From contig JADJVC010000001.1 in the NCBI GenBank assembly GCA_016710685.1, forward strand, positions 200,948-264,947: a stretch of 64,000 nt of DNA, written 5' to 3'. Made by a program: the position numbers and the translations under genes. Shown here piece by piece: positions 1 to 12,935 of the stretch; position 1 is the stretch's first letter; the number at the start of each line of letters is the position of its first letter. The stretch is from Flavobacteriales bacterium (lineage in GTDB: Bacteria; Bacteroidota; Bacteroidia; Flavobacteriales_F; PHOS-HE28). Below the pieces are notes generated by a model. It was not told where the DNA came from. It was given only the letters and a program-made list of their open reading frames with translations, and did not search any database.

Positions 1-699
1 TTGCTCTTCAGGTCGTCCGGCACGTCGCCGCTTACGATGCGCTGCGCGATGCCTTCCGCAATAGCGGTTTTGCCCACGCCGGGTTCGCCGATCAGGATCG
101 GGTTGTTCTTGGTGCGGCGACTGAGAATCTGCAGCACGCGCCGGATCTCTTCATCGCGCCCGATCACGGGGTCGAGCTTGTTCTCTTTGGCGAGCTGGTT
201 CAAGTTCTTCGCGTACTTGTTCAGCGCGTTGTAGGTCTCTTCCTGGCTTTGGCTGGTGACCTTGCTACCCTTGCGCAGCTCCTTGATCGCGAGCACCAGG
301 TCCTTGTGGTTCACGCCGCCATCTTTCAGCAGTTGCGCCACGTTGTCGCTGCCTTCAACAAGGCCGATCAGCAGGTGCTCCACGCTCGCGAACTCGTCAC
401 CAAATTCTTTCAAGGACGACAGCGCCTTGTTCAACACCGTCGCACTTTGGCGGCTCAGAACCACGTCGCCGCCCTGTACTTTCGGGTAGCCGTTCACGAT
501 GCGGTCCAGCGCTGCGAGCAGCGTTGCCGTGTTTACATTCAGCTTCTTCAGCAGAAAAGGGGTGACGTCCTTGTCCACTTCCAAGAGACCCTTCAACAAG
601 TGGCCGGTCTCTATCTGTTGCTGGCCCAAGCCGGTGGTGATGGTCTGCGCCTGCTGGATGGCCTGCTGCGAGCGAATGGTGAATTTGTTCAAGTCCATG
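1..699 (-). CDS. clpB: ClpB chaperone (ATP-dependent Clp protease ATP-binding subunit), N-terminal part; continues beyond window start
   Basis: Minus-strand translation from ATG at 699 gives [18 protein letters not shown]... with two Clp_N repeats, followed by a Walker A motif [21 protein letters not shown]. The ORF is truncated at the window edge and so is not in the ORF track. Confidence 0.85.
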
Positions 700-897
700 T
701 TGTGTATTCAGTATTTCGTTGCTGAAGGAAACGTCCTTTCAGCATGCCACGGTTCCCCCAAGATCCGCACCAATTGGCTTTTGGTCACTTTACCGGAACA
801 AATGGCGGGAGAAATAGATCGCGGGGTGACGGGATGGCGGGGAATTGTTGAAAGCGTAGTTGCATTAATACGCAGATTGCCGAATTACATTGCCGAC

Positions 898-3800
898 ATG
901 AATGGCCAGTTGGTGCCGTGCTTTCATGCGCTACAATGCACGCGCCTGTTTCCGCTGAAGGGGCTGTTAACCTGTTTGTTTTTGAGTGCATCGGCAACGG
1001 CACTGAACGCCCAACATTGGCTCACGAAAGCTTCCAGCCCGCAAGCCGAACACATTGCGGACCTTGTGCTGGACCGGGCGGGCAACAGCTACGTGATCGG
1101 CGATTTCAGCCTAAGCGCGTCTTTTCTGCAAGGCCCCGACAACTTGGGAAGTGTGACCTCATCGGGCGGAAGGGATGTGCTGGTGGCGAAGCTCGCCCCG
1201 GACGGAACGTTGCTTTGGGCGAAGCGCGCGGGCGGTCCCGCTTTGGATGTCGGGCTGAAACTGGTGTTGGGCAATGCGGGCCTTGGCATCTCGGGGCTGT
1301 TCACAGGAACGGCGGACCTTTTCGGTGGTACGCATTCCGCGCAAGGCGGCAGCACGGATTTTTTTGTTGCGCTGCTGGACACCGCGAATGGCAACGCGCA
1401 GTGGGTGCGAACGGCGGGCGCACCGGGCTATACGGACACGCCCAGCGGCATCACCATGCGGCCCAATGGCGACTTGGTGGTGGCTGGAAAGTTCAAGGGT
1501 GATGCCGTCTTCGGAACGGACACGCTCCACAGCGCTTTTGACCCATGGACCAACACCTTGGGCTTCGACGTCTTCATCGCTTCATGGGCTGCCGACGGCA
1601 CCTACCAATGGGTGCGGCAGGGGAGCGGCCCGCACGACGATCAGGCCGTGGACCTTACCAGCGGCCCCGATGGCATGCTTTACATCACAGGGCAGTTCAG
1701 CGACACCATCACCTTCGACGTGCAACACCCCAACATTTCGCTGAACAGCATGTTCGTGGTGAAGTATGATGGGGACGGGCAAGAGCAATGGTTCCGCAAA
1801 TGCGGCGGCAGTACGTTCAACCAAGTAAGCGACATGCTGTTCTCCTCGGAAGGTGACCTGTTGATCACCGGCGATGTGGCCTACACGATGTACTGGGTGG
1901 ACAACATCGCCACGCCCATCCCGAACTTGGAACCGCACGCCTACTTCATCCTCCGTGTGGACACGGCGGGCATGCTGCTCAACGCCACCACCATGGGTTC
2001 GGCGAGCAACCTGCATGCGGCTTCCCTTGCCGAGCAGGCTGATTCCGTGGTAGTGTATGGTGAATTTGAATGCTCCTTTACCGGACTGCAGAACGCATAC
2101 AATGCCAACGGTCTCTTTATGGCAACTGGGCTGAAGGACCTCTTTATCGCGAAGCATGCAGCAATGGACTTCTCATTTGTGGAGGGACAGCAATTCGGTG
2201 GCAGCGGCGCAAAGCGGGCAGGGGCAATAGCGTGGGATATGAACGGGCTGCTCTTCACGGGATCGTTCGAGGATCAATTGTTTTTGCCGGGAAGCTTTCC
2301 CATGTGGGGCGATCCCGTTACCAGCTTTCCCTATTGCTCCTACATCGGCGTTAACGCGGGGCTGACCTATTGCGGTGACCCCAACTACGGCTACTTCGCA
2401 TGGGCAATAAGCTACGGGCTTTCGGACGGTTTTCTTTCGCGGGGGTATGAGGAATCGCGGCAGCCATACGACTGGTGGAACCGCCAGAACACGCCGCCTT
2501 GCGATCGGACGGACCGCGGAAGCGAAGTCTGCATATCCGAGCAGTATCAGGCCTGCACAGACACCGTTGAAGCTTGTGGTTTTGCCGTGCTCACGGTGCA
2601 TGCACCATTCCCGACGCAGAATGATTTTTGTGGTTTTCGCGGGCAAACGCCTACCGTGGGACCCTACGCTTACCAAGGTTGGGGCGGCCTTCCGCCCGGA
2701 TCCACGTTCAATGTGTATACAACGGGCTGGGTCGGGGTTACGATCAATACCACCAACTATTGCACTTCCTACAACGATTCCGTTTACGTGCTGATCCAAC
2801 CGGAACCCACGGCCATGGTGAGCGACAGCAGCGGCATTTTTACCGATGACCCGTTGCCAATTCAATATCAGGCCTGCGTGCCGATGGTGTTTTGGGCCAC
2901 TCAGTTCGCGCCCACCGATCAAGTCTTTTGGACGTTGGGCAGCGACACCACATGGAGCGACACCATGCACATGGCCAACTCCGGCTATTACCGGCTGCAC
3001 CTGCTTTCTGCCGCAGGCTGTGAAAATGTGTACGGCATGAATTTCACCTTGGTGCCGAATTCCGTTGTGCCGGACATTACCGGTGTAACGGTGCAATTCG
3101 CCCTTGGCGACACCATGGTGTATTGCGGCACTGGTTGTATTGGCGGCGCGCTGACACTCACTTGGTACGTGAATGGACTACAAACCTATTTGCCGTCCGG
3201 CATGAACTTGCAATACCAGTTCCAGCAGAGCTGTACGTCTTCGAACCCTTCGCCGCAGAGCACGCAGTACGTCAACGCTCCGCTCAATTGGACCGCGCCC
3301 AACACCGGGCCGGGCTGGTACACGGTGGGCGTGCAGTGTACACTCGACGCATTGCCGTGTGATACCAATACATTCAGTTTCAACTTTTTGGACAGCGTTT
3401 ATGTGCTGGCCGGCACGCCGCCGCAATTCACCACAAGCCCAGTGGTGAGGTGTGCCGGGGACACGGTGGTAGTAGCACTGCCATGCAGCAATTGCGACAG
3501 CGTTGCCTGGACCGGCCCCGGGATCGTGTGGACCTCCGCAACAGGGGATTCCTTGCTGGTGGATCAAGACGGTTACTATCAGTTCCAAGCGTTCAGCAGT
3601 GCATTCGGCAACGTATGCCAGTCCAGTTCCTACGTCACCGTGCTCGCCCCGCCGCCGCCGCCCATTTACATGCAACCGTACTATGGCGTGATCTGTCCGA
3701 ATGATTCCGTGCTGCTATACACGCCAACCCACGCCACGAATTACGAATGGACAGGGCCGGGGTTTACCGTACTGCCAGCCAACGATTCCATCTGGACCGA

Positions 3801-5319
3801 CGACCCCGGCGATTACTACCTCACCGTAACGCACTATCCCAATTGCACCAGCACTAACGGGCCTAACACGGTGCTCAATTTCAGTTCGCCGTTCATTGAA
3901 GCATTGCCCACGGGTACTATTTGCCTCAACGGCACGGTGGACCTGCAAGTGGCGACCGGGCCGGGAAGTTCGGTGCAATGGCAAGCGCCACTTATGGGCA
4001 CTGCGTTCGTACAAACGGTGAGTGCGGCAGGAACTTACCAATGCACGGTTACCAGCTGTGGCATCGATTGGCCACTGAATTACACCGTGCAGGCCAGCGC
4101 TGTTTCCGCTGAATTGGACACGACGGCCTACCTGCTCTGCAATGGCGGACCGGTTACACTCACTGGGCCTGCCGGTGCGAACATTTACCAGTGGTTGCCA
4201 TCGGGAGGCTTCGGTCAATCCATCACGTTGGATACACCCGGTGACGTGCAGCTCGTGGTGTTGGACGCATTCGGTTGCGCGGACACTTCCGCGGTGATAT
4301 CCGTGAACCCGTTCGCATTTCCCCAACCAGCAATGGCCATTGGCGACACGGTTTGCGCCGGTGCGTTGGCAACGGTGACGGCCACCGGTTCGGGCAATCT
4401 TTCTTGGTTTGCCGCTGCGGATACTTCCTCGTTGTTAGGCAATGGGAACAGTTGGGCCTTCACCGCAACGGCGAGCGATACGGTTTACCTGTTGCAGGTG
4501 GAAGCCGGTTGTACGGGCCAATTCATTCCGATAAATGTGGAGGTAGCTCCGGTCTCCCCGGCACCGAACATCACCGGTCCCGTTGCGTATTGCGTAGGTG
4601 ATACGGTGTTGTTGATCGCCGAAGCGGATGGCTTGCCCCTGGCATGGAATACACCAGCAGGAGCCGTGCAAGGCGCTGTGGTGGGTCCGATGCCTGCTCA
4701 ACTTTCAAATGCAGGGTCTTATACCTGTTGGGCTGTAATAACAGGATGTGGAAGTGACACGGCCAACGTAGTTGTGGGCGTTTCCGATGTCCCCGAAATG
4801 CCGGTGATCATCGGCGATACATTGCTTTGTGAAGGCGATTCGTTGCTCCTGGTCGCGGATGTATCAGGAGGAAATGTGCAATGGCAAACTCCTGCCGGAC
4901 AAGTGGACGGCACGAGCGTAATGCTCGGCAGCGTGCTGATAACGGACCAAGGCGAATACCAATGCACGGCCTTTGCGGGTGTATGCTCCAGTGCCACCGC
5001 CATGGTTCTGGTAGTGGTTGATCCCTGCACCACGGACACCACCGACCTCATCATTCCCAACATCTTCAGCCCGAACGGCGATGGTGTGAACGACGACTTT
5101 TACATCGGCGGGGACGGTATCCGGCATGTCGATCTTCAAGTGTACAACCGCTGGGGCCAGCTCATGGCGGAGGTGAGCGGAAGGGCTGCGCGTTGGGATG
5201 GCAGGGCCGCCGGTTCCGGCGTTTTGTGCAGCGAAGGCGTGTACTTCTGGGTTGCGCAAGCCGTGCGGAACACGGGAGAGGGGATCCCGCTTTCGGGTTA
5301 TGTGCAGTTGGTGCGGTGA
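898..5319 (+). CDS. Giant T9SS cargo / adhesin-like protein with N-terminal signal peptide, SBBP beta-propeller repeats, multiple Ig-like domains and a gliding-motility-associated C-terminal domain (CHU_C, T9SS type B CTD)
   Basis: Long ORF 499..5319. The in-frame ATG at 898 precedes the hydrophobic signal LLTCLFLSASATALNAQ; an earlier start would overlap clpB. C-terminus IPNIFSPNGDGVNDDFYI...YNRWGQLM matches the CHU_C/type B CTD consensus. Confidence 0.75.
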   Translation: MNGQLVPCFHALQCTRLFPLKGLLTCLFLSASATALNAQHWLTKASSPQAEHIADLVLDRAGNSYVIGDFSLSASFLQGPDNLGSVTSSGGRDVLVAKLAPDGTLLWAKRAGGPALDVGLKLVLGNAGLGISGLFTGTADLFGGTHSAQGGSTDFFVALLDTANGNAQWVRTAGAPGYTDTPSGITMRPNGDLVVAGKFKGDAVFGTDTLHSAFDPWTNTLGFDVFIASWAADGTYQWVRQGSGPHDDQAVDLTSGPDGMLYITGQFSDTITFDVQHPNISLNSMFVVKYDGDGQEQWFRKCGGSTFNQVSDMLFSSEGDLLITGDVAYTMYWVDNIATPIPNLEPHAYFILRVDTAGMLLNATTMGSASNLHAASLAEQADSVVVYGEFECSFTGLQNAYNANGLFMATGLKDLFIAKHAAMDFSFVEGQQFGGSGAKRAGAIAWDMNGLLFTGSFEDQLFLPGSFPMWGDPVTSFPYCSYIGVNAGLTYCGDPNYGYFAWAISYGLSDGFLSRGYEESRQPYDWWNRQNTPPCDRTDRGSEVCISEQYQACTDTVEACGFAVLTVHAPFPTQNDFCGFRGQTPTVGPYAYQGWGGLPPGSTFNVYTTGWVGVTINTTNYCTSYNDSVYVLIQPEPTAMVSDSSGIFTDDPLPIQYQACVPMVFWATQFAPTDQVFWTLGSDTTWSDTMHMANSGYYRLHLLSAAGCENVYGMNFTLVPNSVVPDITGVTVQFALGDTMVYCGTGCIGGALTLTWYVNGLQTYLPSGMNLQYQFQQSCTSSNPSPQSTQYVNAPLNWTAPNTGPGWYTVGVQCTLDALPCDTNTFSFNFLDSVYVLAGTPPQFTTSPVVRCAGDTVVVALPCSNCDSVAWTGPGIVWTSATGDSLLVDQDGYYQFQAFSSAFGNVCQSSSYVTVLAPPPPPIYMQPYYGVICPNDSVLLYTPTHATNYEWTGPGFTVLPANDSIWTDDPGDYYLTVTHYPNCTSTNGPNTVLNFSSPFIEALPTGTICLNGTVDLQVATGPGSSVQWQAPLMGTAFVQTVSAAGTYQCTVTSCGIDWPLNYTVQASAVSAELDTTAYLLCNGGPVTLTGPAGANIYQWLPSGGFGQSITLDTPGDVQLVVLDAFGCADTSAVISVNPFAFPQPAMAIGDTVCAGALATVTATGSGNLSWFAAADTSSLLGNGNSWAFTATASDTVYLLQVEAGCTGQFIPINVEVAPVSPAPNITGPVAYCVGDTVLLIAEADGLPLAWNTPAGAVQGAVVGPMPAQLSNAGSYTCWAVITGCGSDTANVVVGVSDVPEMPVIIGDTLLCEGDSLLLVADVSGGNVQWQTPAGQVDGTSVMLGSVLITDQGEYQCTAFAGVCSSATAMVLVVVDPCTTDTTDLIIPNIFSPNGDGVNDDFYIGGDGIRHVDLQVYNRWGQLMAEVSGRAARWDGRAAGSGVLCSEGVYFWVAQAVRNTGEGIPLSGYVQLVR

Positions 5320-5443
5320 AGACGGCGTGGGTGAAGGGATGTGGAAGTGGTCTGACTTTATCTCAACCTGCGAGGCCTTTCCAACGGACCGCACCCCAAC
5401 CCTTAGTTTTGAAACCGCCCGTAGCAGCGGGCAAGAGGAGCAC

Positions 5444-7174
5444 ATGACCATACGCGCAGCACCCGCAATTGAACGAGCAGCACTGGCCTTTATGGCCGTT
5501 GGCTTGCTCGCGGGAGCTTTGCTTTTGCCGCTTCGAGCTTTTCCGGCGGAAAAGGAAAACGCGAACACCACTGGCGAAGCCCGCCTCGCGCAGGCCAAAG
5601 CCCTTTTGCCCAGCGATCCGGATTCCGCATTGGTGCTCGCGTTACAGGCCGGGAAGCAGCTGGGGGAGTTTCCCTCCAAATGGCAAAAGGCCAGTGCGTT
5701 AATGGTTTTGGGCGATGCATACGCGGCAACGGGGGAAATGCCGGATGCCTTGGCCGCCTACCAGCGGGCGCAATTGGTGATGGAGGAGGTGCCGGAGGAT
5801 CAAGTTGCCGACACCTCGGTGATCCTTGCCCGCGCGGACCTTCAACTGAAAATTGGCACCTTGTATTTTACCCTGCGCGATTTTGAGAAGAGCGTTGCGC
5901 GGTTGACCGATGGCTTGAGCATGCTCGATGCGGCGCGCGACGTGTTGACCCTGGAGCAATTGAACAGTAGAAAGGTCCGGGCATTCAACAACATTGCCGG
6001 CGGCTATATCCAGCAGAAGGAATACGCGTTAGCGCTGCCTTATTTCCAACAGGCCGTGGCGATGAACCGGGCGTTGAACAATCCGCGTTATGAGAGCGCA
6101 CTGAACAACAACATCGGTATTTGCTACATGGAGACGGGCCAGCACGACCTGGCCGATCAGTATTTCCTGCGGGCACTTGCGGTGCGCAAGCAAACCGATG
6201 ACGTGCGCGGACAAGCACAAGTGCTGAACAGCATGGGCAAGAACCAGGCGCTCATGGGCCGGTTCAGCGCAGCACGCGTGCATTTCGAACAAGCGCTCGC
6301 GCTCGGCCGGTCGGCGGGCAGCTCCGCATCCATGGCCATCTCCTTGGAGTCGCTGGCCACCGCTTATGACACGCTGGGAGAGTACAAGGCCGCATTTGAT
6401 GCCTTCCGTGAGTACAAGGCGATCAACGATAGCCTTTACAGCTCCGAGGCGCGGACGAACATTGCCCGGCTGGAGGACCGGTTCCGCCGCGACAAGGAAA
6501 AGAAGGTTTTCGAGCTGGAAGCCCAGCGCAAGGATGCCGTGAACGCGCGCCAACGCATGTTGAACATCGCGCTCGCCGTGGCGATGTTCCTGCTGTTGCT
6601 TACCGCCTATCTGCTGTTCAAGGCCATGCGGTCCCGTGTGCGGACCAGCGCGCTTCAACAGGAAAAGCTCCGGCTGGAAAGTGAAAAACTCCGGTTGGAA
6701 AGCGAAAAACTGGAAACGGAAAAATCCGCGCTAACGGAAAGCTTGGCGTTCAAAGAGCGCGAGCTCACCGCCAATGCCTTGTTCCTGCTGAAGAAGAATG
6801 AACTTATCGAACACATCGTGGAACGGCTCCTCAAGGCCAAGTCCACCTTCCGGCAGGAGAACCAAAAGATCGTGCAGGACATCATCCACGAGTTGCAAGC
6901 GAGCCGGGATGAACACAATTGGGATGAGTTCGAAGCGCATTTCACGCGGGTCCACACCACCTTTTACCAAACCTTGCAGGAGCAGTTCCCTTCGCTTACG
7001 CCCAACGAGCGGAAGCTGTGCGCTTTCCTCCGGCTGAACATGAGCACCAAGGACATTTCGGCCATCACGCACCAGAGCCTGAACAGCATTACCGTGGCCC
7101 GGTCGCGCTTGCGGAAAAAGCTGCAGATCGATGGCGAGGATGTGCATTTGATCGACTTTTTGCAGTCCATTTGA
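5444..7174 (+). CDS. TPR-repeat / coiled-coil / single-TM / LuxR-type HTH transcriptional regulator (Bacteroidota family)
   Basis: TPR-like repeats; TM segment IALAVAMFLLLLTAYLLF; coiled coil LRLESEKLRLESEKLETEK; C-terminal GerE/LuxR HTH (ERKLCAFLRLNMSTKDISAITHQSLNSITVARSRLRKKL). Start chosen at MTIRAAP, downstream of the adhesin stop. Confidence 0.8.
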   Translation: MTIRAAPAIERAALAFMAVGLLAGALLLPLRAFPAEKENANTTGEARLAQAKALLPSDPDSALVLALQAGKQLGEFPSKWQKASALMVLGDAYAATGEMPDALAAYQRAQLVMEEVPEDQVADTSVILARADLQLKIGTLYFTLRDFEKSVARLTDGLSMLDAARDVLTLEQLNSRKVRAFNNIAGGYIQQKEYALALPYFQQAVAMNRALNNPRYESALNNNIGICYMETGQHDLADQYFLRALAVRKQTDDVRGQAQVLNSMGKNQALMGRFSAARVHFEQALALGRSAGSSASMAISLESLATAYDTLGEYKAAFDAFREYKAINDSLYSSEARTNIARLEDRFRRDKEKKVFELEAQRKDAVNARQRMLNIALAVAMFLLLLTAYLLFKAMRSRVRTSALQQEKLRLESEKLRLESEKLETEKSALTESLAFKERELTANALFLLKKNELIEHIVERLLKAKSTFRQENQKIVQDIIHELQASRDEHNWDEFEAHFTRVHTTFYQTLQEQFPSLTPNERKLCAFLRLNMSTKDISAITHQSLNSITVARSRLRKKLQIDGEDVHLIDFLQSI

Positions 7175-7313
7175 CCTTTTCGGGACGTGTTCAGTAAGTT
7201 ACTGTATGTCAGTAGGATACGGCGGCCTGTATGCTTGTTGTAAGGCCATTTTTCACGATTGTACCGGTGGTGTAAGCCGTTCCCGTGGGACTGTGCCGAT
7301 GATGTAAGGGTGT

Positions 7314-7544
7314 ATGTGGTATCAATGGGGATTTTCGGTTGCACATTGCGGCCATCCAACAAATCCCGTTTTGGAAACCACGAAAAAAGATGCCCTTCCG
7401 CCAGACGAACTTGAACGCCTGGAACAGTTCCATCAGGAGATGAAGGACGAGACGGAAGCTTGGCAGAAGCTGCTGGAGAACTTGGACAAATTGAAAAGCA
7501 AACGGACCGAAAACCATCAACCCCCAAAACCGACGAAACAATGA
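7314..7544 (+). CDS. Small hypothetical coiled-coil ORF, possibly translationally coupled to the downstream T9SS gene (stop TGA overlaps its ATG as ATGA)
   Basis: 76-aa ORF with a charged helical segment (ELERLEQFHQEMKDETEAWQKLLENLDKLK). The ATGA overlap with the gene starting at 7541 is the only support. Confidence 0.25.
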   Translation: MWYQWGFSVAHCGHPTNPVLETTKKDALPPDELERLEQFHQEMKDETEAWQKLLENLDKLKSKRTENHQPPKPTKQ

Positions 7545-9139
7545 AAACACGATACTCCCTTTTCGCAGGCCTTTGCCTGATGCTGGGCGCCGCCCCGGTG
7601 GTTCAGGCCCAACCCGGCTCGCTTGATCCAACATTCAACACCACGGGTTACCAGATACAGCCCGTCAATACCGGGGACGGGGCCCAGAAAATCCTGGTGC
7701 AAGACGACCAGAAAGTGCTGCTCATCGGCTTCAGTTTCGATGCTAACTATGTTGCACACACCATTGTGAAGCGGTTCTTGCCAGATGGCTCGGTCGATGC
7801 TGCTTTCGGCGATAACGGCACGGCGTCCTATGTAGTTTCTTTCGAGGCAGACACGTATTCGGCCATTCTGACCCCGGCAGGAAAAATTCTTTTGGCCGGG
7901 ACAACGGATGACTATCAGAGCCAGCAAATCCTTTTGATCCAGCTCAACGAAGATGGTTCCAAGGACCTCGCATTTGGTGATCAGGGCGTAGTGGTGCAAA
8001 GCATTGGCCTGGTTACCGAAAATGGCCATGACAATGCCTACGACGTAGCGCTGGACGCTGCCGGAAACATTGTTATCTGCGGAAGCAGCTATGATGAAAA
8101 TTTTGTGCCCCGCCCGATCGTATCGCGGTTCTCGCCAGCGGGCGTGCTCGATACCACGTTTGGTGTGGATGGCGTAGCTACCATCCCGGTGAATGCCGTG
8201 GGAAGCAACGCATTTAAAGGCGTGGTGATCCAGCCAGATGGCAAAATTGTCGCGTCGGGCTATTTTGGGAACACGGAGTTGTGGTACGTTATGCTCGTGG
8301 TGCGTTTCAATACGGATGGCACGCTGGATCCCTCTTTCGGCGATGCTGGCATCGTGAAGTACAACTACAGCAATGTAGACGATGAAGGGGAAGACTTGAA
8401 GTTGACCCCGGACGGCTCCATTTTGGTGTGTGGCATCTCCGCTACGGCAAGCTACAACTACAGCGCGTTGTTGGTTAAATTCAATCCTGCAGGTGCGCTT
8501 GACCTCAGCTTCGGTAGTGAAGGCGTTGTTTTTGAGGACTTGGGCACGTTCGATTTTGCATCGAACCTGGCAGTGATGCCCGACGGAGGTATTGTAATGA
8601 CCGGAACTTCTGGGTCAGCTCCGCCAAGCATTAACTTCGGCATAGCTGCGTGGAAGTACACGGCAAGCGGCACGCCGGATATGACCTTCGGGACAGGCGG
8701 GGTTTCATTGCCCGTTATACCAACGTACGGCGCCATGATCTATGCCATGGGAGTGCAGGCCGATGGGAAAATTCTCGTTGGTGGCCAAGCCCGCACAAGC
8801 AGCAATCAAAATTACTTCCTGCTGGCGCGGTTGGAAAACGATTTCTCCATCGGGGTTCCTGAGTTGAGCGGTACCACCGCAGCGGTGGTGTTCCCAAACC
8901 CGGCAACGGCTAACTCCACATTAAGCCTGCAGATCTCGGAAACGGTTCAACCGGATGCCCAGATCAGCCTGTACGCGGCAGACGGCCGGTTGGTTTTCAC
9001 CTCCCAAGCCGGCGGAATGCAGCGTGATGCACAACGCATCATTTTCCAGCTTCCCGTCGATCTTGCACCCGGCATCTACCAGCTCGCCATACAACAGCAG
9101 GGTACACGCCGATCCGCAAGTCTGCTGGTCACTCACTAA
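7541..9139 (+). CDS. T9SS cargo protein with delta-60-type beta-propeller repeats and Por_Secre_tail (type A) CTD
   Basis: Signal peptide MKTRYSLFAGLCLMLGAAPVVQAQ; repeated LDPTFN/DAAFGDNG/DLAFGDQG/DTTFGVDG/DPSFGDAG/DLSFGSEG/DMTFGTGG motifs; C-terminal AAVVFPNPATANSTLSLQ...LLVTH CTD. Confidence 0.8.
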   Translation: MKTRYSLFAGLCLMLGAAPVVQAQPGSLDPTFNTTGYQIQPVNTGDGAQKILVQDDQKVLLIGFSFDANYVAHTIVKRFLPDGSVDAAFGDNGTASYVVSFEADTYSAILTPAGKILLAGTTDDYQSQQILLIQLNEDGSKDLAFGDQGVVVQSIGLVTENGHDNAYDVALDAAGNIVICGSSYDENFVPRPIVSRFSPAGVLDTTFGVDGVATIPVNAVGSNAFKGVVIQPDGKIVASGYFGNTELWYVMLVVRFNTDGTLDPSFGDAGIVKYNYSNVDDEGEDLKLTPDGSILVCGISATASYNYSALLVKFNPAGALDLSFGSEGVVFEDLGTFDFASNLAVMPDGGIVMTGTSGSAPPSINFGIAAWKYTASGTPDMTFGTGGVSLPVIPTYGAMIYAMGVQADGKILVGGQARTSSNQNYFLLARLENDFSIGVPELSGTTAAVVFPNPATANSTLSLQISETVQPDAQISLYAADGRLVFTSQAGGMQRDAQRIIFQLPVDLAPGIYQLAIQQQGTRRSASLLVTH

Positions 9140-9166
9140 TTCTTGGACATTGAAAAACAGAAAACC

Positions 9167-11221
9167 ATGAAAGCATTTTACCTCCCCTTCGCCTTTGCCG
9201 CGCTTGCCGCAGTAACGGCCTCCGCGCAGTACAGCGCGACCATCACCATTACGGACTTCAGTACCGGTTTGCCGGTGGAGAATGCGACTGTTGCGCGCGG
9301 TGGCACTTCCATGACCACGAATGCAGCCGGTCAAGCCATTTTCCCCGGATTGCCGAACAACACGTACAGCTTTTCCGTGACCGCCACATGCTACTATCCC
9401 GGTGCCGGAATGATCACGATCGCTGGTGCCAATGCCGCGACATCCCTGGGACTGGATCCCATGGCCACCAACAACCTGTTCTTCTTCATCGGCGACCCGA
9501 TGGCGATCACGAGTGCATTCGTTGAAGTGACCAACGGAGGCAACTACTACGCGAGCTTCACGACGTTCGACACCTTCGGCGGCGAAATGCTGGCGGATGT
9601 GCCCTTCGGCGAAATGAGCTATACGATCACTACGCCCTGCTACGAAACGGTGACCGGCACAGTAACGGTTGATTGCAACAACGGCGACGGCATCGCGGTT
9701 TTTGAGAATCCGGGACCGGCCACCACTAACAACCTGTTCTTCTTCATCGGCGACCCGATGGCGATCACAGGCGCATTTGTTGAAGTGACCAACGGAGGCA
9801 ACTACTACGCGAGCTTCACGACATTCGACACCTTCGGCGGCGAAATGCTGGCGGACGTTCCCTTCGGCGAAATGAGCTATACGATCACGACGCCGTGCTA
9901 CGAAACGGTGACCGGCACAGTAACGGTTGATTGCAATAACGGCGACGGCATCGCGGTTTTTGAGAACCCGGCCCCAGCCACCACCAACAACCTGTTCTTC
10001 TTCATCGGCGACCCGATGGCGATCACGGGTGCATTCGTTGAAGTGACCAACGGTGGCAACTACTACGCGAGCTTCACGACATTCGACACCTTCGGCGGCG
10101 AAATGCTGGCGGACGTTCCCTTCGGCGAAATGAGCTATACGATCACCACACCGTGCTACGAAACAGTGACCGGCACAGTAACGGTTGATTGCAACAACGG
10201 CGACGGCATCGCGGTTTTTGAGAACCCGGCCCCGGCCACCACCAACAATCTCTTCTTCTATATCGGCGATCCGCTGGCGATCATCGGTGCATTCGTTGAA
10301 GTGACCAACGGTGGCAACTACTACGCGAGTTTCACGACGTTCGACACCTTCGGCGGCGAAATGCTGGCGGACGTGCCCTTCGGTGAAATGTCCTACACCA
10401 TCACCACGCCGTGCTTTGAAACGGTCACCGGCACGGTGATGGTTGATTGCAACAACGGCGACGGTATCTTGGTGGCAGCCGATCCAGGACCCGCAACCAT
10501 GAACAATTTGTTCTTCTACATCGGCGACCCGCTGGCGATTCTTGGTGCTACAGTGAATGTGACCGATGGCGGTAGCTACAATGAGAGCTTCGTGACGTTC
10601 GACACCTTCGGCGGCGAAATGCTGGCGGATGTGCCCTTCGGCGAGATGAGCTACATGATCAGCGCACCTTGCTACGAGACCGTGACCGGAACAGTGACGG
10701 TGGACTGCAACAATGGTGACGGCATTGCGATCTTCACCAATCCTGAACCGGTCGTCTTGGACGTTACAGTCGACGTGTCCGGGAATACCCTCATGGCCGC
10801 AGCCACCGGCATGGAGTACCAATGGGTGGATTGCGATAATGGCAATGCCCCGATCGATGGTGCCACGGCACAGAGTTTCCAGCCTACGGAAAATGGCAAC
10901 TATGCCGTGGTGATTTCCGACGGGGACTGCTCGCAAACCTCAACCTGCACAGCGGTGATCGTTACCGGGGTTGACCAGGTCGAAGGCCGGGATGCTTTCG
11001 CAGTTTACCCCAATCCGTTCGCTGACAGGCTCACTGTTCGAACCAATGGAAAGTTGGGTCCCGTCCGTGTGGAACTCCTCAGCTTGACCGGCCAAGTAAT
11101 CCTGGACGAGAGCGGCTCCGGCATGGAGATCAGCTTGCTGACTTCGGAGCTTCCTTCCGGTAGCTACTTGCTGCGTCTTTCGTCGGAAAGCGCCCGCACA
11201 ACGATCAGCGTGGTGAAGTAA
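9167..11221 (+). CDS. T9SS cargo protein containing five tandem 86-aa repeats and Por_Secre_tail CTD
   Basis: Signal peptide MKAFYLPFAFAALAAVTASAQ; repeat TNNLFFFIGDPMAIT...CNNGDGIAVFENPAPAT x5; C-terminal FAVYPNPFADRLTV...TISVVK CTD. Confidence 0.8.
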   Translation: MKAFYLPFAFAALAAVTASAQYSATITITDFSTGLPVENATVARGGTSMTTNAAGQAIFPGLPNNTYSFSVTATCYYPGAGMITIAGANAATSLGLDPMATNNLFFFIGDPMAITSAFVEVTNGGNYYASFTTFDTFGGEMLADVPFGEMSYTITTPCYETVTGTVTVDCNNGDGIAVFENPGPATTNNLFFFIGDPMAITGAFVEVTNGGNYYASFTTFDTFGGEMLADVPFGEMSYTITTPCYETVTGTVTVDCNNGDGIAVFENPAPATTNNLFFFIGDPMAITGAFVEVTNGGNYYASFTTFDTFGGEMLADVPFGEMSYTITTPCYETVTGTVTVDCNNGDGIAVFENPAPATTNNLFFYIGDPLAIIGAFVEVTNGGNYYASFTTFDTFGGEMLADVPFGEMSYTITTPCFETVTGTVMVDCNNGDGILVAADPGPATMNNLFFYIGDPLAILGATVNVTDGGSYNESFVTFDTFGGEMLADVPFGEMSYMISAPCYETVTGTVTVDCNNGDGIAIFTNPEPVVLDVTVDVSGNTLMAAATGMEYQWVDCDNGNAPIDGATAQSFQPTENGNYAVVISDGDCSQTSTCTAVIVTGVDQVEGRDAFAVYPNPFADRLTVRTNGKLGPVRVELLSLTGQVILDESGSGMEISLLTSELPSGSYLLRLSSESARTTISVVK
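9467..10757 (+). repeat. Five tandem 258-bp direct repeats inside the CDS; copies 1-3 nearly identical at DNA level, copies 4-5 diverged
   Basis: AACAACCTGTTCTTCTTCATCGGC recurs at 9470, 9728, 9986, 10244 and 10502, an exact 258-bp period. Confidence 0.9.
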
Positions 11222-11242
11222 ACGGAACCTTAAAATAGGGAA

Positions 11243-11279
11243 GGGGCCGCCTCAGTTCGAGGCGGCCCCTTTTTCGTTT
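11243..11279. terminator. Rho-independent terminator hairpin (GGGGCCGCCTC-AGTTC-GAGGCGGCCCC + T-run) between convergent genes
   Basis: Perfect 11-bp GC-rich stem followed by TTTTTCGTTT, immediately after the stop at 11221. Confidence 0.7.
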
Positions 11280-11359
11280 GTCGAAGAAAGTTGTCATGCC
11301 GGGCTTGCCCGGGATCGCATTCGCCTGTGTCGAAAAATAAGCGTATGGGCATAACGTTG

Positions 11360-11566
11360 CTACAACCCCAACTTCTTCACCAGCGCACCAACCTCAGCCT
11401 CCGTGCTGCGTAACATTTCGTTGCAAAAGGTGATCAACACCACGGCCCTTTTCACCTTGCCGGTGAGCGCGTCCACGGAGATCTTGTCCTCTTGCAGGTC
11501 CTGCATGATGCCCTCCAGCTCCGTGAAGGCTTTTTCGTAGGTGAGCTTGTCTTCAACCTTTTCCAT
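11360..11566 (-). CDS. xseB: Exodeoxyribonuclease VII small subunit
   Basis: MEKVEDKLTYEKAFTELEGIMQDLQEDKISVDAL..., a ~69-aa XseB-like helical protein that overlaps the xseA stop. The track ORF 11360..11611 has a longer alternative start. Confidence 0.8.
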   Translation of the reverse strand: MEKVEDKLTYEKAFTELEGIMQDLQEDKISVDALTGKVKRAVVLITFCNEMLRSTEAEVGALVKKLGL

Positions 11567-12935
11567 GGCGTTCAATGTTTTTGATGGTGGACCAGGCTTT
11601 CCCGCTGGCAAAGGTCGTTTCCACTTCGTCGCCGGGCTTTAGCGTGCCGGGGTCTTTTATGGCGTGCCCGTCTTTGCGGGTAATGCTGAAGCCGCGGTGG
11701 AGGAGCTTTTCGGGCGAGAGGAATTGGATCGCATCGTCCATGCCTTGCAGGCGGCCGAGCAGAAGCTGAAAGCCGCGTTGCGCAATCCCCGATAACGAGC
11801 CGCTCATTTCGCGGATCCGTGCGGCTTCAACCTGTGCCAGTTTGTGGCGCGGCAACAGTGCGAGGTCGTGGGCAAACGTTTCCAGCACGCGGCTTGAAAC
11901 GGCGATCTTGTCCGTTACGCTTCGCGCGAATTGGCCCGTAGTGGTGTGCAACAGTCCGCGCTCATTCCTGCAACGTGCCGTGGGCCGCATAATTACCATT
12001 TCCGTGAAGGTGCTCAATCCTTCCTTCCGTGCCGTAAAATCGGTGAGCATGGCGTTGTGGATCTGCACCAGCATGCCCGTCATCGAGGTCTCGAAGTACA
12101 TGGCCCGGTCAACAAAAAAATCCGCGACAGCAGTGGGCGTTTTGTGGTGCCCCTTTGCAATAAGGTCCAACACAGAAACGTCCACGTCGTGCCCGATACC
12201 TGTGAGCACAGGGATGCGCATTTGCGCCGCCACGCGCGCCAGCTCCAGGTCGTTGAACGGTTCCAAGTCCAGTTTACTGCCGCCGCCACGGATCAACACC
12301 ACGGCATCAAATTTTGTGGGGTCAATGGCGGCAAGCGCGGCACGGAGTTCCCCCGCCGCAGCCTCGCCTTGTACCACGGCGTTGAACAAACGCACATGGA
12401 AACGATAGCCGTGTTCGTTGTGCTCCAAGTGCTTCATGAAATCCGTGTAAGCCGCAGTGCCCTGCGAGGCTATCAACGCGATGCGCTGCACCACCAGCGG
12501 CATGCGAATGAACCGGTTCCTATCGTATAGGCCTTCTTCCTTCAGCGTTGCGATGGTTTCCCGCTTGCGCCGCTCCAGTTCGCTGATGTTGAAGCTCAGG
12601 TCGATCTGTTCAATCACCAAGCTCAGCCCAAAAACCAAGTGGTAGTTGGTCTTGGCCAAGAAAAGGATCTCCACGCCGTCCTTCAGGATGTTGCGGCTTT
12701 CACCGCCTAATTCCTGCCGGATGCGGTTCAACGCGGACATCCAGATCGCGCCACGCATCACGGCCACTTTCTCGCCGTCCTGATGTTGCACAAGTTCCAA
12801 GTACGCATGTTTGCCCACGTTGATGGCAGCGATCTCCGCCTTCACCCAGAACGATGCTCCATGCGTAGCCTCCTCGATCCGTTGCTTGATCGCGGTGCCG
12901 ACCTGGCGTAGGGTGTAGATCTTGCGCTCCTCCAT
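11553..12935 (-). CDS. xseA: Exodeoxyribonuclease VII large subunit
   Basis: 460 aa; OB-fold N-terminus and catalytic core (IRGGGSKLDLEPFNDLELARVAAQMRIPVLTGIGHDVDVSVLD) typical of XseA. Confidence 0.9.
   Translation of the reverse strand: MEERKIYTLRQVGTAIKQRIEEATHGASFWVKAEIAAINVGKHAYLELVQHQDGEKVAVMRGAIWMSALNRIRQELGGESRNILKDGVEILFLAKTNYHLVFGLSLVIEQIDLSFNISELERRKRETIATLKEEGLYDRNRFIRMPLVVQRIALIASQGTAAYTDFMKHLEHNEHGYRFHVRLFNAVVQGEAAAGELRAALAAIDPTKFDAVVLIRGGGSKLDLEPFNDLELARVAAQMRIPVLTGIGHDVDVSVLDLIAKGHHKTPTAVADFFVDRAMYFETSMTGMLVQIHNAMLTDFTARKEGLSTFTEMVIMRPTARCRNERGLLHTTTGQFARSVTDKIAVSSRVLETFAHDLALLPRHKLAQVEAARIREMSGSLSGIAQRGFQLLLGRLQGMDDAIQFLSPEKLLHRGFSITRKDGHAIKDPGTLKPGDEVETTFASGKAWSTIKNIERHGKG

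Follow-up and report, generated by a model that had tools for sequence, protein, structure and literature searches.

We analysed a 64,000-nucleotide stretch (the window) of contig JADJVC010000001.1, from an uncultured wastewater Flavobacteriales bacterium of the PHOS-HE28 lineage, which carries at 9167..11221 a gene whose middle is built from five 258-bp repeats in direct succession. The product of this repeat gene appears to be a type IX secretion system (T9SS) cargo, and its parts, in window coordinates, are as follows.

9167..11221, plus strand: whole gene, 684-residue T9SS type A cargo (open reading frame, translation, exact look-up, Pfam, NCBIfam, 65 homologues)
9167..9226, plus strand: putative signal peptide MKAFYLPFAFAALAAVTASA, a hydrophobic N-terminus read from the sequence
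9230..9469, plus strand: N-terminal cap domain, CarboxypepD_reg (PF13620, best stretch residues 27-87)
9470..9727, plus strand: repeat copy 1, 86 residues, Cys at residues 158 and 170
9728..9985, plus strand: repeat copy 2, Cys at residues 244 and 256
9986..10243, plus strand: repeat copy 3, Cys at residues 330 and 342
10244..10501, plus strand: repeat copy 4, Cys at residues 416 and 428
10502..10759, plus strand: repeat copy 5, the most diverged, Cys at residues 502 and 514
10760..10966, plus strand: 'YQWVDC' module, a small immunoglobulin (Ig)-like beta-sandwich, invariant Cys at residues 556, 588 and 594
10985..11218, plus strand: T9SS type A C-terminal sorting domain (PF18962 at residues 613-679, TIGR04183, fold matches)

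Our analysis indicates that this is a genuine in-frame array of five transthyretin-like units in the middle of a Sec/T9SS-exported surface protein, and that it may serve as a stalk of adjustable length; we put the probability of this reading at about 0.72. With Tandem Repeats Finder we obtained one array, at 9465-10729, with a period of 258 bp, 4.9 copies, 88% matches, 0% indels and a score of 1833, and translation into 86-residue units confirms the five copies of the original prediction, which start at 9470, 9728, 9986, 10244 and 10502. Together the units span residues 102-531 (nucleotides 9470-10759), all in frame and without indels, and the motifs that had been quoted from them, FFFIGDPMAIT against FFYIGDPLAII and TTPCYETVTGTVTVDC, are present.

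The gene runs from an ATG at 9167 to 11221, and its product is identical to MBK8580450.1, a protein of a Flavobacteriales metagenome-assembled genome (MAG) with the annotation 'T9SS type A sorting domain-containing protein'. The signal peptide is probably cleaved after ASA, before Q21; A18 and Q21 are invariant across six aligned proteins of 680-684 residues, the window protein and five homologues. At the other end, PF18962 (Por_Secre_tail) scores 38.2 bits against a cut-off of 27 and TIGR04183 scores 34.1 bits against a cut-off of 23. An AlphaFold2 model of the C-terminal 159 residues (mean predicted local distance difference test score, pLDDT, 87.5) consists of a small sandwich, a disordered linker (residues 601-606) and a second sandwich, the latter matching T9SS C-terminal domains (CTDs) such as 8glk_D (TMt 0.84) and 8qb1_A (0.75) and also RgpB, PorZ and 5ag8. 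By these matches the gene product is a predicted T9SS type A cargo, in agreement with what had been claimed for it. The first sandwich of the tail model is the YQWVDC module, about 70 residues long ('YQWVDC…GDCSQTSTC'), with strands (E10-72) at a pLDDT of about 90 and fold matches of the Ig/fibronectin type III kind; no Pfam or NCBIfam family matches it.

Over the whole window protein, PF13620 reaches 64.1 bits (E 1.5e-17, cut-off 32.3) in four stretches, and PEGA (PF08308) reaches 34.8 bits summed against a cut-off of 20.8, with no individual stretch passing alone. A single unit scores 15.7 bits with PF13620, below the cut-off, and no Pfam or NCBIfam family rises above threshold for it. A hidden Markov model (HMM) built from the units detects the cap domain at 10-23 bits, and the cap therefore looks like an old, diverged paralogue of the unit, effectively a sixth and very diverged relative upstream of the array. 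A six-frame scan of the window with the same HMM found no second gene with these units. An antisense open reading frame (8921-10936, minus strand, 671 residues) spans the whole array; we rejected it as coding because changes from copy to copy are overwhelmingly synonymous in the plus frame, and not in the antisense one, and because the domain, signal and CTD matches all lie on the plus strand. The repeat and the G+C content give rise to it as a by-product.

Age and recombination of the copies

How old are the copies? Copies 1-3 differ from one another at 9-15 nucleotides (94.2-96.5% identity) and are 98-100% identical in protein (0-2 residues), so that their description as 'only a few nucleotides' apart was close, if a slight understatement; between copies 2 and 3 there are 9 synonymous and no non-synonymous differences. 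Copy 4 shares 83-85% of its nucleotides with copies 1-3, and copy 5 shares 74-78% with every other copy. Computed by the Nei-Gojobori method, the synonymous divergence (dS) among copies 1-3 is 0.17-0.26 and the non-synonymous divergence (dN) 0-0.010, with dN/dS ≤0.05, and comparisons that involve copies 4 and 5 give dS 0.55-1.24 and dN 0.09-0.19. A yardstick is provided by L001, a separate assembly (1.07-Mb contig, JGI sample 3300053040) whose flanks match those of the window at 98.6% identity over 11 kb and 97.1% over 7 kb; it too has five copies, and most of the copy-specific variants are the same in both. Orthologous dS between the window and L001 is 0.03-0.05. The dS among copies 1-3 is 4-8 times this strain divergence, so that the 'almost identical' copies have several times the age of the strain split; they are old, and it is strong purifying selection that keeps them the same in protein, with conversion from time to time.

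This result bears directly on the earlier claim of a very recent expansion and, more broadly, on the picture of a hypervariable contingency locus with rapid copy-number flips and diversifying selection, as in length-variable adhesins. Such a picture draws on the 98-100% protein identity of copies 1-3, on the occurrence of four- and five-copy forms in one 90% cluster with near-identical flanks and two different junctions, and on five pairs of related proteins whose flanks are 98-100% identical and whose unit numbers differ. However, the copies exceed the strain divergence several-fold in dS, most copy-specific variants are common to the window, L001 and a further strain (L032), and at least six distinct sequences of the window's species cluster have five copies. 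Moreover, the low dN/dS speaks of conservation rather than diversification, and some of the low-copy forms are probably collapsed assemblies. We thus consider a recent expansion unlikely.

What keeps old copies alike? The differences between the window and L001, 42 nucleotides across the gene, are clustered, and their states point to conversion between copies. Unit positions 104-215 of copy 5 hold a cluster of 15 strain differences, 11 of which match the state of another copy and three of which are copy-4-specific; conversion-like examples in this copy, all specific to copy 4, are positions 172/173 (TT) and 191 (G). Over the array as a whole, 20 of the 25 differences consist of a base already found at that position in another copy (naive binomial P=3e-14). 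Even in a conservative test, with a null built solely from synonymous substitutions, 13 of 18 synonymous strain differences take up a state found in a sister copy, where the null expectation is 0.32 (P=5e-4). Alternative haplotypes are also seen among strains of the 90% cluster, 'PCFETV…VNC' in copy 3 and 'SYTITTPCFETV' or 'SYMISAPCYETV' in copy 5, and these carry copy-4 states. As a separate observation, copy 4 itself (10244-10501) is the same, with 0 nucleotide differences, in the window, L001 and L032, and the copies next to it differ by 1-6% between these strains.

At larger distances the units cluster by protein. In P0004, P0010, P0012, P0013, P0016 and P0017 the nearest neighbour of each unit always lies in the same protein. 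Between the window's units and those of P0002, a syntenic, 73%-identical, five-copy orthologue, identity is 67-81%, and a hint of positional orthology is confined to the last units (81%); this comparison bears the classic signature of homogenisation with edge copies escaping. Concerted evolution through recombination, one of the possibilities that had been raised for this array, is thus supported: the clustering of units tends to follow the protein and not the position, strains reuse the states of sister copies, and copy number changes in whole-unit steps. On this evidence the array evolves by unequal crossing-over, through which whole units are gained or lost, and by gene conversion between units, with strong purifying selection acting on each unit, so that units stay alike within a genome as they drift from those of other species.

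Copy number among relatives and assembly collapse

A word-indexed search returned 65 homologues, nearly all from uncultured Flavobacteriales, with length classes of 424-429, 509-514, 596-602 and 680-684 residues that correspond, by the unit HMM, to 2, 3, 4 and 5 units. The comparison of copy number across relatives that had been proposed gives a range of 1-9 units (9 in P0013, 7 in P0066), with relatives differing in exact steps of 84-87 residues. In an exhaustive profile search of 1.84 billion proteins we obtained just 39 representatives at E ≤1e-30, and the family is therefore narrow; by the origin of its sequences it appears restricted to uncultured Flavobacteriales (PHOS-HE28, Cryomorphaceae-like) of activated sludge and other environmental metagenomes. 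One Cryomorphaceae MAG, HOU_bin.0061 (L014), has paralogues side by side at 5902-9003, 10022-11662 and 11565-12860, with 7 units and with 5+3 units (8), the second with an apparent frameshift; they rank with the longest arrays of the family, next to those of P0013 and P0066.

Copy number does vary among species, since long-read assemblies differ in unit number: MAGs from the 'tig…' contigs of the Singleton series and from the 'MFD…contig_' assemblies have 3, 4, 4, 4, 5 and 5 units. Within the window's own 90% cluster, several five-copy sequences stand beside three four-copy ones, and the flanks of the two forms are 99-100% identical. Two of the four-copy sequences (P0210 and P0213/L032) contain a hybrid of copies 2 and 3 that switches between unit positions 179 and 209, and the third (P0216) contains a hybrid of copies 1 and 2; the two different junctions imply two independent events, which may be recombination or assembly errors. 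The copy-number variation that had been suggested for this gene therefore holds insofar as four- and five-copy forms coexist in one cluster, but part of the apparent variation is probably collapse.

The clearest case of such collapse, of which the original prediction had rightly warned, comes from a sister species. The contig L002, which carries the five units of P0002 and in them a 218-bp exact repeat, lies in JADJLC, that is MAG EsbE_18-Q3-R3-47_MAXAC.140 (Flavobacteriales PHOS-HE28), assembled in the Nanopore/CANU work of Singleton et al. (PMC8012365). Two MEGAHIT 'k141' contigs from two samples, L003 and L004, both contain the same two-copy gene (P0014), whose first 413 and last 529 nucleotides match L002 exactly and whose units are mosaics of L002 units. 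The two-copy form is probably a de Bruijn-graph collapse, so that part of the apparent variation would be artefactual; a real deletion allele is conceivable but the less probable explanation. In another MEGAHIT assembly, MAG JTS-AC70, the gene is broken across two contig ends (L018, L022). In the Nanopore contig L002, moreover, the neighbouring TPR and xseA genes (3102-4022, 8388-9694) are fragmented, and both are intact in the short-read L003 of the same species; these splits are typical of residual long-read indel errors, and neither assembly type is fully reliable here. For metagenomics the warning is that the copy-number 'diversity' of this family in databases is partly artefactual.

Could the five copies of the window, or the near-identity of its copies 1-3, then themselves have come from over-expansion or collapse? 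That the repeats of this family upset short-read assemblers, as the sister species and JTS-AC70 illustrate, makes the question a fair one. However, the window copies are all distinguishable, being at least 9 nucleotides apart, and the longest exact repeat in the gene is 92 bp; frame, Cys pattern and dN/dS are intact in every copy; L001, an independent assembly, has five copies, as do several other sequences; and the accession of the window protein appears to fall in the MBK range of a long-read activated-sludge MAG series. An assembly artefact is thus very improbable. Because exact repeats do not exceed 92 bp and independent assemblies agree, we regard five copies as correct for the window strain.

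Fold and cysteine pattern of the unit

A single 86-residue unit, the prediction of which had been proposed as a check, was modelled with AlphaFold2 (unit 2, with an alignment of 57 diverse units). The model has a mean pLDDT of 95.2 and seven strands, at unit residues 3-7, 17-21, 27-31, 39-41, 47-54, 61-67 and 75-79. In a Foldseek search of the PDB it matches the transthyretin-like (TTL) domain of carboxypeptidases D/N/M, with template modelling (TM) scores of 0.78 for 5aq0 and about 0.68 for 2nsm and 3mn8 (0.62-0.78 over 5aq0, 2nsm, 3mn8 and 1qmu), and the CnaB class (0.71-0.78), including the CnaB2 domain 8bdw (0.77), the TIE protein of B. anthracis (0.78), the B domains of SdrD and the pilin domains of BcpA and SpaC. 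Further matches are to the S-layer protein SlaB (8qox_B), a rhamnogalacturonan lyase domain and a cohesin. The modelled unit is thus a predicted transthyretin-like/CarboxypepD_reg (CnaB-like) seven-stranded beta-sandwich of the prealbumin-like class, and the 'disulfide-stabilised Ig-like module' that had been expected is right just loosely, as a beta-sandwich. A PDB sequence search with the unit profile found no solved sequence-level relative (best E 0.45, an EF-hand protein).

Two cysteines occur in each unit, at unit residues 57 and 69 (C57 and C69); among the 57 aligned units the first never varies and the second is kept in at least 90%. The model places C57 in the strand 5-6 loop and C69 in the strand 6-7 loop, on either side of the seven-residue strand 61-67. 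Because its seven strands are antiparallel, the N- and C-termini, and with them these two loops, are predicted to sit at opposite poles of the unit. A bond between them would therefore be geometrically unlikely, and C57 should instead face the C69 of the next unit. More distant CarboxypepD_reg repeats have a Gly at position 57 and are Cys-free.

The cysteine counts of the family fit such a staggered arrangement. The cap domain has C75 alone, the equivalent of C57 (the 'top' Cys), and about 45 homologues share the pattern of one Cys in the cap, two in each unit and three in the module, so that the total is even and each end odd. We extended the count to 130 family proteins with at least one two-Cys unit: both cysteines are found in 212 of 213 internal units, and the top Cys alone in 67 of 72 first domains after the signal peptide, the five exceptions being N-terminally truncated fragments. 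Proteins at the margins of the scheme are informative as well. In at least four lineages, cap-less proteins have no bottom Cys in unit 1 ('VVVDENNG' in P0013; 'VTVNDTT' in P0051, P0052, P0083 and P0101; 'VVVDANDG' in P0069; 'VVVDKQ' in P0115), and in module-less proteins the last unit has lost the top Cys and kept the bottom one ('SQEGRMTV…IEC' in P0053, 'EKEGYVTA…VDC' in P0086).

We propose that C57 of each domain bonds C69 of the following one, giving a staggered chain of inter-domain disulfides that would run from the cap through the units to the three-Cys module. The topology of the model and the loss, in terminal units, of exactly the outward-facing Cys argue for this pairing, to which we give roughly even odds. 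The earlier view, in which each unit is an independent Ig-like module closed by its own C57-C69 bond, has in its favour that the two cysteines are nearly invariant and 12 residues apart. But in the model they lie at opposite ends of a seven-residue strand; with a one-Cys cap and a three-Cys module the scheme always leaves two cysteines unpaired; the loss of C69 is confined to first units with no preceding domain, and that of C57 to last units with no module; and the fold is transthyretin-like rather than Ig. Bonds within units thus seem to us a poor prospect. A sub-lineage represented by P0053, P0091, P0098 and P0115 has an additional, third Cys in each unit, close to where strand 2 begins ('…EPGCTISV', '…TTQGCQVTL'), and the simple staggered model leaves its pairing partner unexplained.

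A putative surface stalk and its partner gene

The neighbourhood of the repeat gene adds two features.

7538..9139, plus strand: DUF5122 beta-propeller gene (PF17164, E 1.3e-44) with its own T9SS CTD (Por_Secre_tail, also in L001)
11241..11271, no strand assigned: 14-bp G+C-rich hairpin followed by a plus-strand T-run, found by scan, between the repeat gene and the convergent xseB

The propeller gene ends 27 bp upstream of the repeat gene, and the pair is kept in L001-L003, L026-L031 and L032, which cover the close strains, the sister species and a relative just 44% identical whose other neighbours are different. In P0032 (L025, 709-3498) the two are fused in frame into one protein of 929 residues, consisting of the propeller, a cap, 3 units, the module and the CTD; it is 45% identical to the propeller protein of the window over 493 aligned residues, of which those up to about 430 are propeller, and the fusion has neither the CTD of the propeller protein nor the signal peptide of the repeat protein. 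This Rosetta-stone-type hint suggests that propeller and repeat protein may work together.

Downstream, xseB and xseA are convergent with the repeat gene, and the hairpin between them and the repeat gene is likely a bidirectional terminator. In L001 (12112-14980) and L032 (about 4800-7790) some 2.9 kb of extra DNA lie between the repeat gene and xseB, encoding a 62-residue open reading frame, a PAS/HisKA histidine kinase and an alpha/beta hydrolase; this segment is missing from the window (11278-11362) and from the sister species (L002/L003), a strain-level indel. Upstream, at 499-5319 on the plus strand, lies the gene of a 1606-residue protein in which Ig_7 is combined with a C-terminal CHU_C domain (T9SS type B; counterpart in L001, 1510-6153), followed by a TPR protein gene at 5198-7174; T9SS cargo genes form a run of at least three in this neighbourhood. 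A sigma-70 promoter scan gave fewer matches than the shuffled expectation, the sigma-70 consensus not being informative for Bacteroidota.

How would such a protein be placed on the cell? Passages of PMC8545088 describe type A CTDs as removed after export, with the cargo attached to the cell surface. It would follow that the C-terminus is proximal to the cell and the cap distal. After T9SS export, then, the C-terminal end would be held at the outer membrane, and the units would act as a spacer or stalk holding the cap, perhaps with the DUF5122 propeller, away from the cell, with C57(n)-C69(n+1) bonds stapling the stalk and the number of units setting its reach. By analogy with known stalk proteins, and in view of the CnaB/TTL fold, the lack of a catalytic domain, the whole-unit changes in length and the P0032 fusion, a surface stalk whose reach depends on unit number, perhaps together with the propeller, appears to be the most economical reading.

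A different role for the same architecture is that the units are ligand-binding modules, for carbohydrate or for an S-layer-type coat, and that copy number tunes avidity or a lattice. CarboxypepD_reg and PEGA domains do occur in carbohydrate-active and S-layer proteins, and the window protein has its summed PEGA score; the fold matches include SlaB, the rhamnogalacturonan lyase domain and the cohesin; and very strong purifying selection extends over the whole unit surface. On the other hand, we identified no binding-site motif in the units, the top fold matches are to accessory and stalk domains that have no catalytic role, and P0032 carries its propeller head N-terminal to the array, where a stalk would be expected to have it. 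We therefore see ligand binding as a serious but rather doubtful candidate, one to which perhaps a quarter of our belief attaches.

Several points weigh against the stalk reading and the disulfide chain that we attach to it. The stalk role rests on architecture and analogy, and were the units to bind a ligand, copy number would tune valency and not length. The inter-domain pairing, for its part, rests on the topology of a single-unit model and on comparative Cys counts in which many of the proteins are close relatives and not independent. As to adjustable length, the window and L001, which were compared at the DNA level, both have five copies, and the array is thus not hypervariable on that timescale; the four-copy forms within the species and several of the relatives with 2-3 copies come from assemblies of unestablished read type; and at least one two-copy form resembles short-read collapse.

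Comparison with known systems helps to place the surface stalk that we favour. With the TTL domains of carboxypeptidases (PF13620) the unit shares a seven-stranded beta-sandwich of about 80 residues, and the whole window protein exceeds the Pfam cut-off of that family. It differs in having a Cys in place of the conserved 'GY' glycine and a second Cys 12 residues on, both of which are lacking in the other PF13620 members that we sampled, and in forming five tandem domains in a T9SS cargo that has no catalytic domain. CnaB stalks (the B repeats of SdrD, BcpA, SpaC, the TIE protein, CnaB2 of L. plantarum) belong to the same fold class and likewise use tandem domains to project a tip, and covalent reinforcement is a recurring theme among them. 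In CnaB domains the reinforcement is a Lys-Asn/Asp isopeptide bond inside the domain, and sortase anchors the proteins to peptidoglycan. The unit described here, in contrast, has no lysine in its 86 residues, which leaves no place for an isopeptide bond of this kind, and its protein is T9SS-exported; covalent links, if present, would be inter-domain disulfides.

Similar in organisation are the extender (BIg) repeats of RTX adhesins, including region II of MpIBP/MpAFP: as the relevant portions of PMC7493085, PMC4083281 and 10.1101/2025.09.30.679566 describe them, near-identical tandem beta-sandwiches with rigidified linkers extend a tip, and such arrays are mis-assembled without long reads. RTX extenders are substrates of the type I secretion system with tens to more than 100 repeats and Ca2+-stiffened linkers, whereas here we deal with a T9SS cargo of 2-9 repeats and proposed disulfides; no RTX family of Pfam or NCBIfam was found on the window protein, whose C-terminus is a T9SS CTD. 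T9SS fibres such as GhpA of Aureispira and the SprB-type adhesins are chains of Ig-like or other beta-sandwiches that end in a T9SS CTD, and our C-terminal model matches the GhpA fragments 9flw and 9flp. These fibres are giants of thousands of residues with heterogeneous domains, in contrast to the compact 684 residues and the homogeneous, concertedly evolving unit of the window protein, and we found no sequence-level relationship to them. Our literature searches returned no description of the family and no report of disulfide-linked tandem stalks, nor any of such a chain in T9SS cargo.

That surface proteins carry beta-sandwich domains in tandem, and that such arrays evolve in concert, is well known, and the repeat itself is unremarkable; the array is that of an ordinary tandem-domain surface protein from an uncharacterised narrow family, and the staggered Cys pattern is its unusual element. 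The value of the case lies partly in its being a clean and quantified example, with copies that are old yet homogenised, conversion between strains of about 98% identity, and deletions with hybrid junctions. It lies also in the strict Cys arithmetic (one, two…two, three) with its compensating losses at the ends, from which follows a specific prediction, cheap to test, that disulfides staple the modules to one another. If this prediction is true, each extra repeat would add one new link, and the T9SS-displayed stalk would be a single covalently stapled rod. Such a rod would be a third solution for stiffening bacterial surface stalks, beside the Ca2+-clamped linkers of RTX adhesins and the isopeptide bonds of Gram-positive pili.

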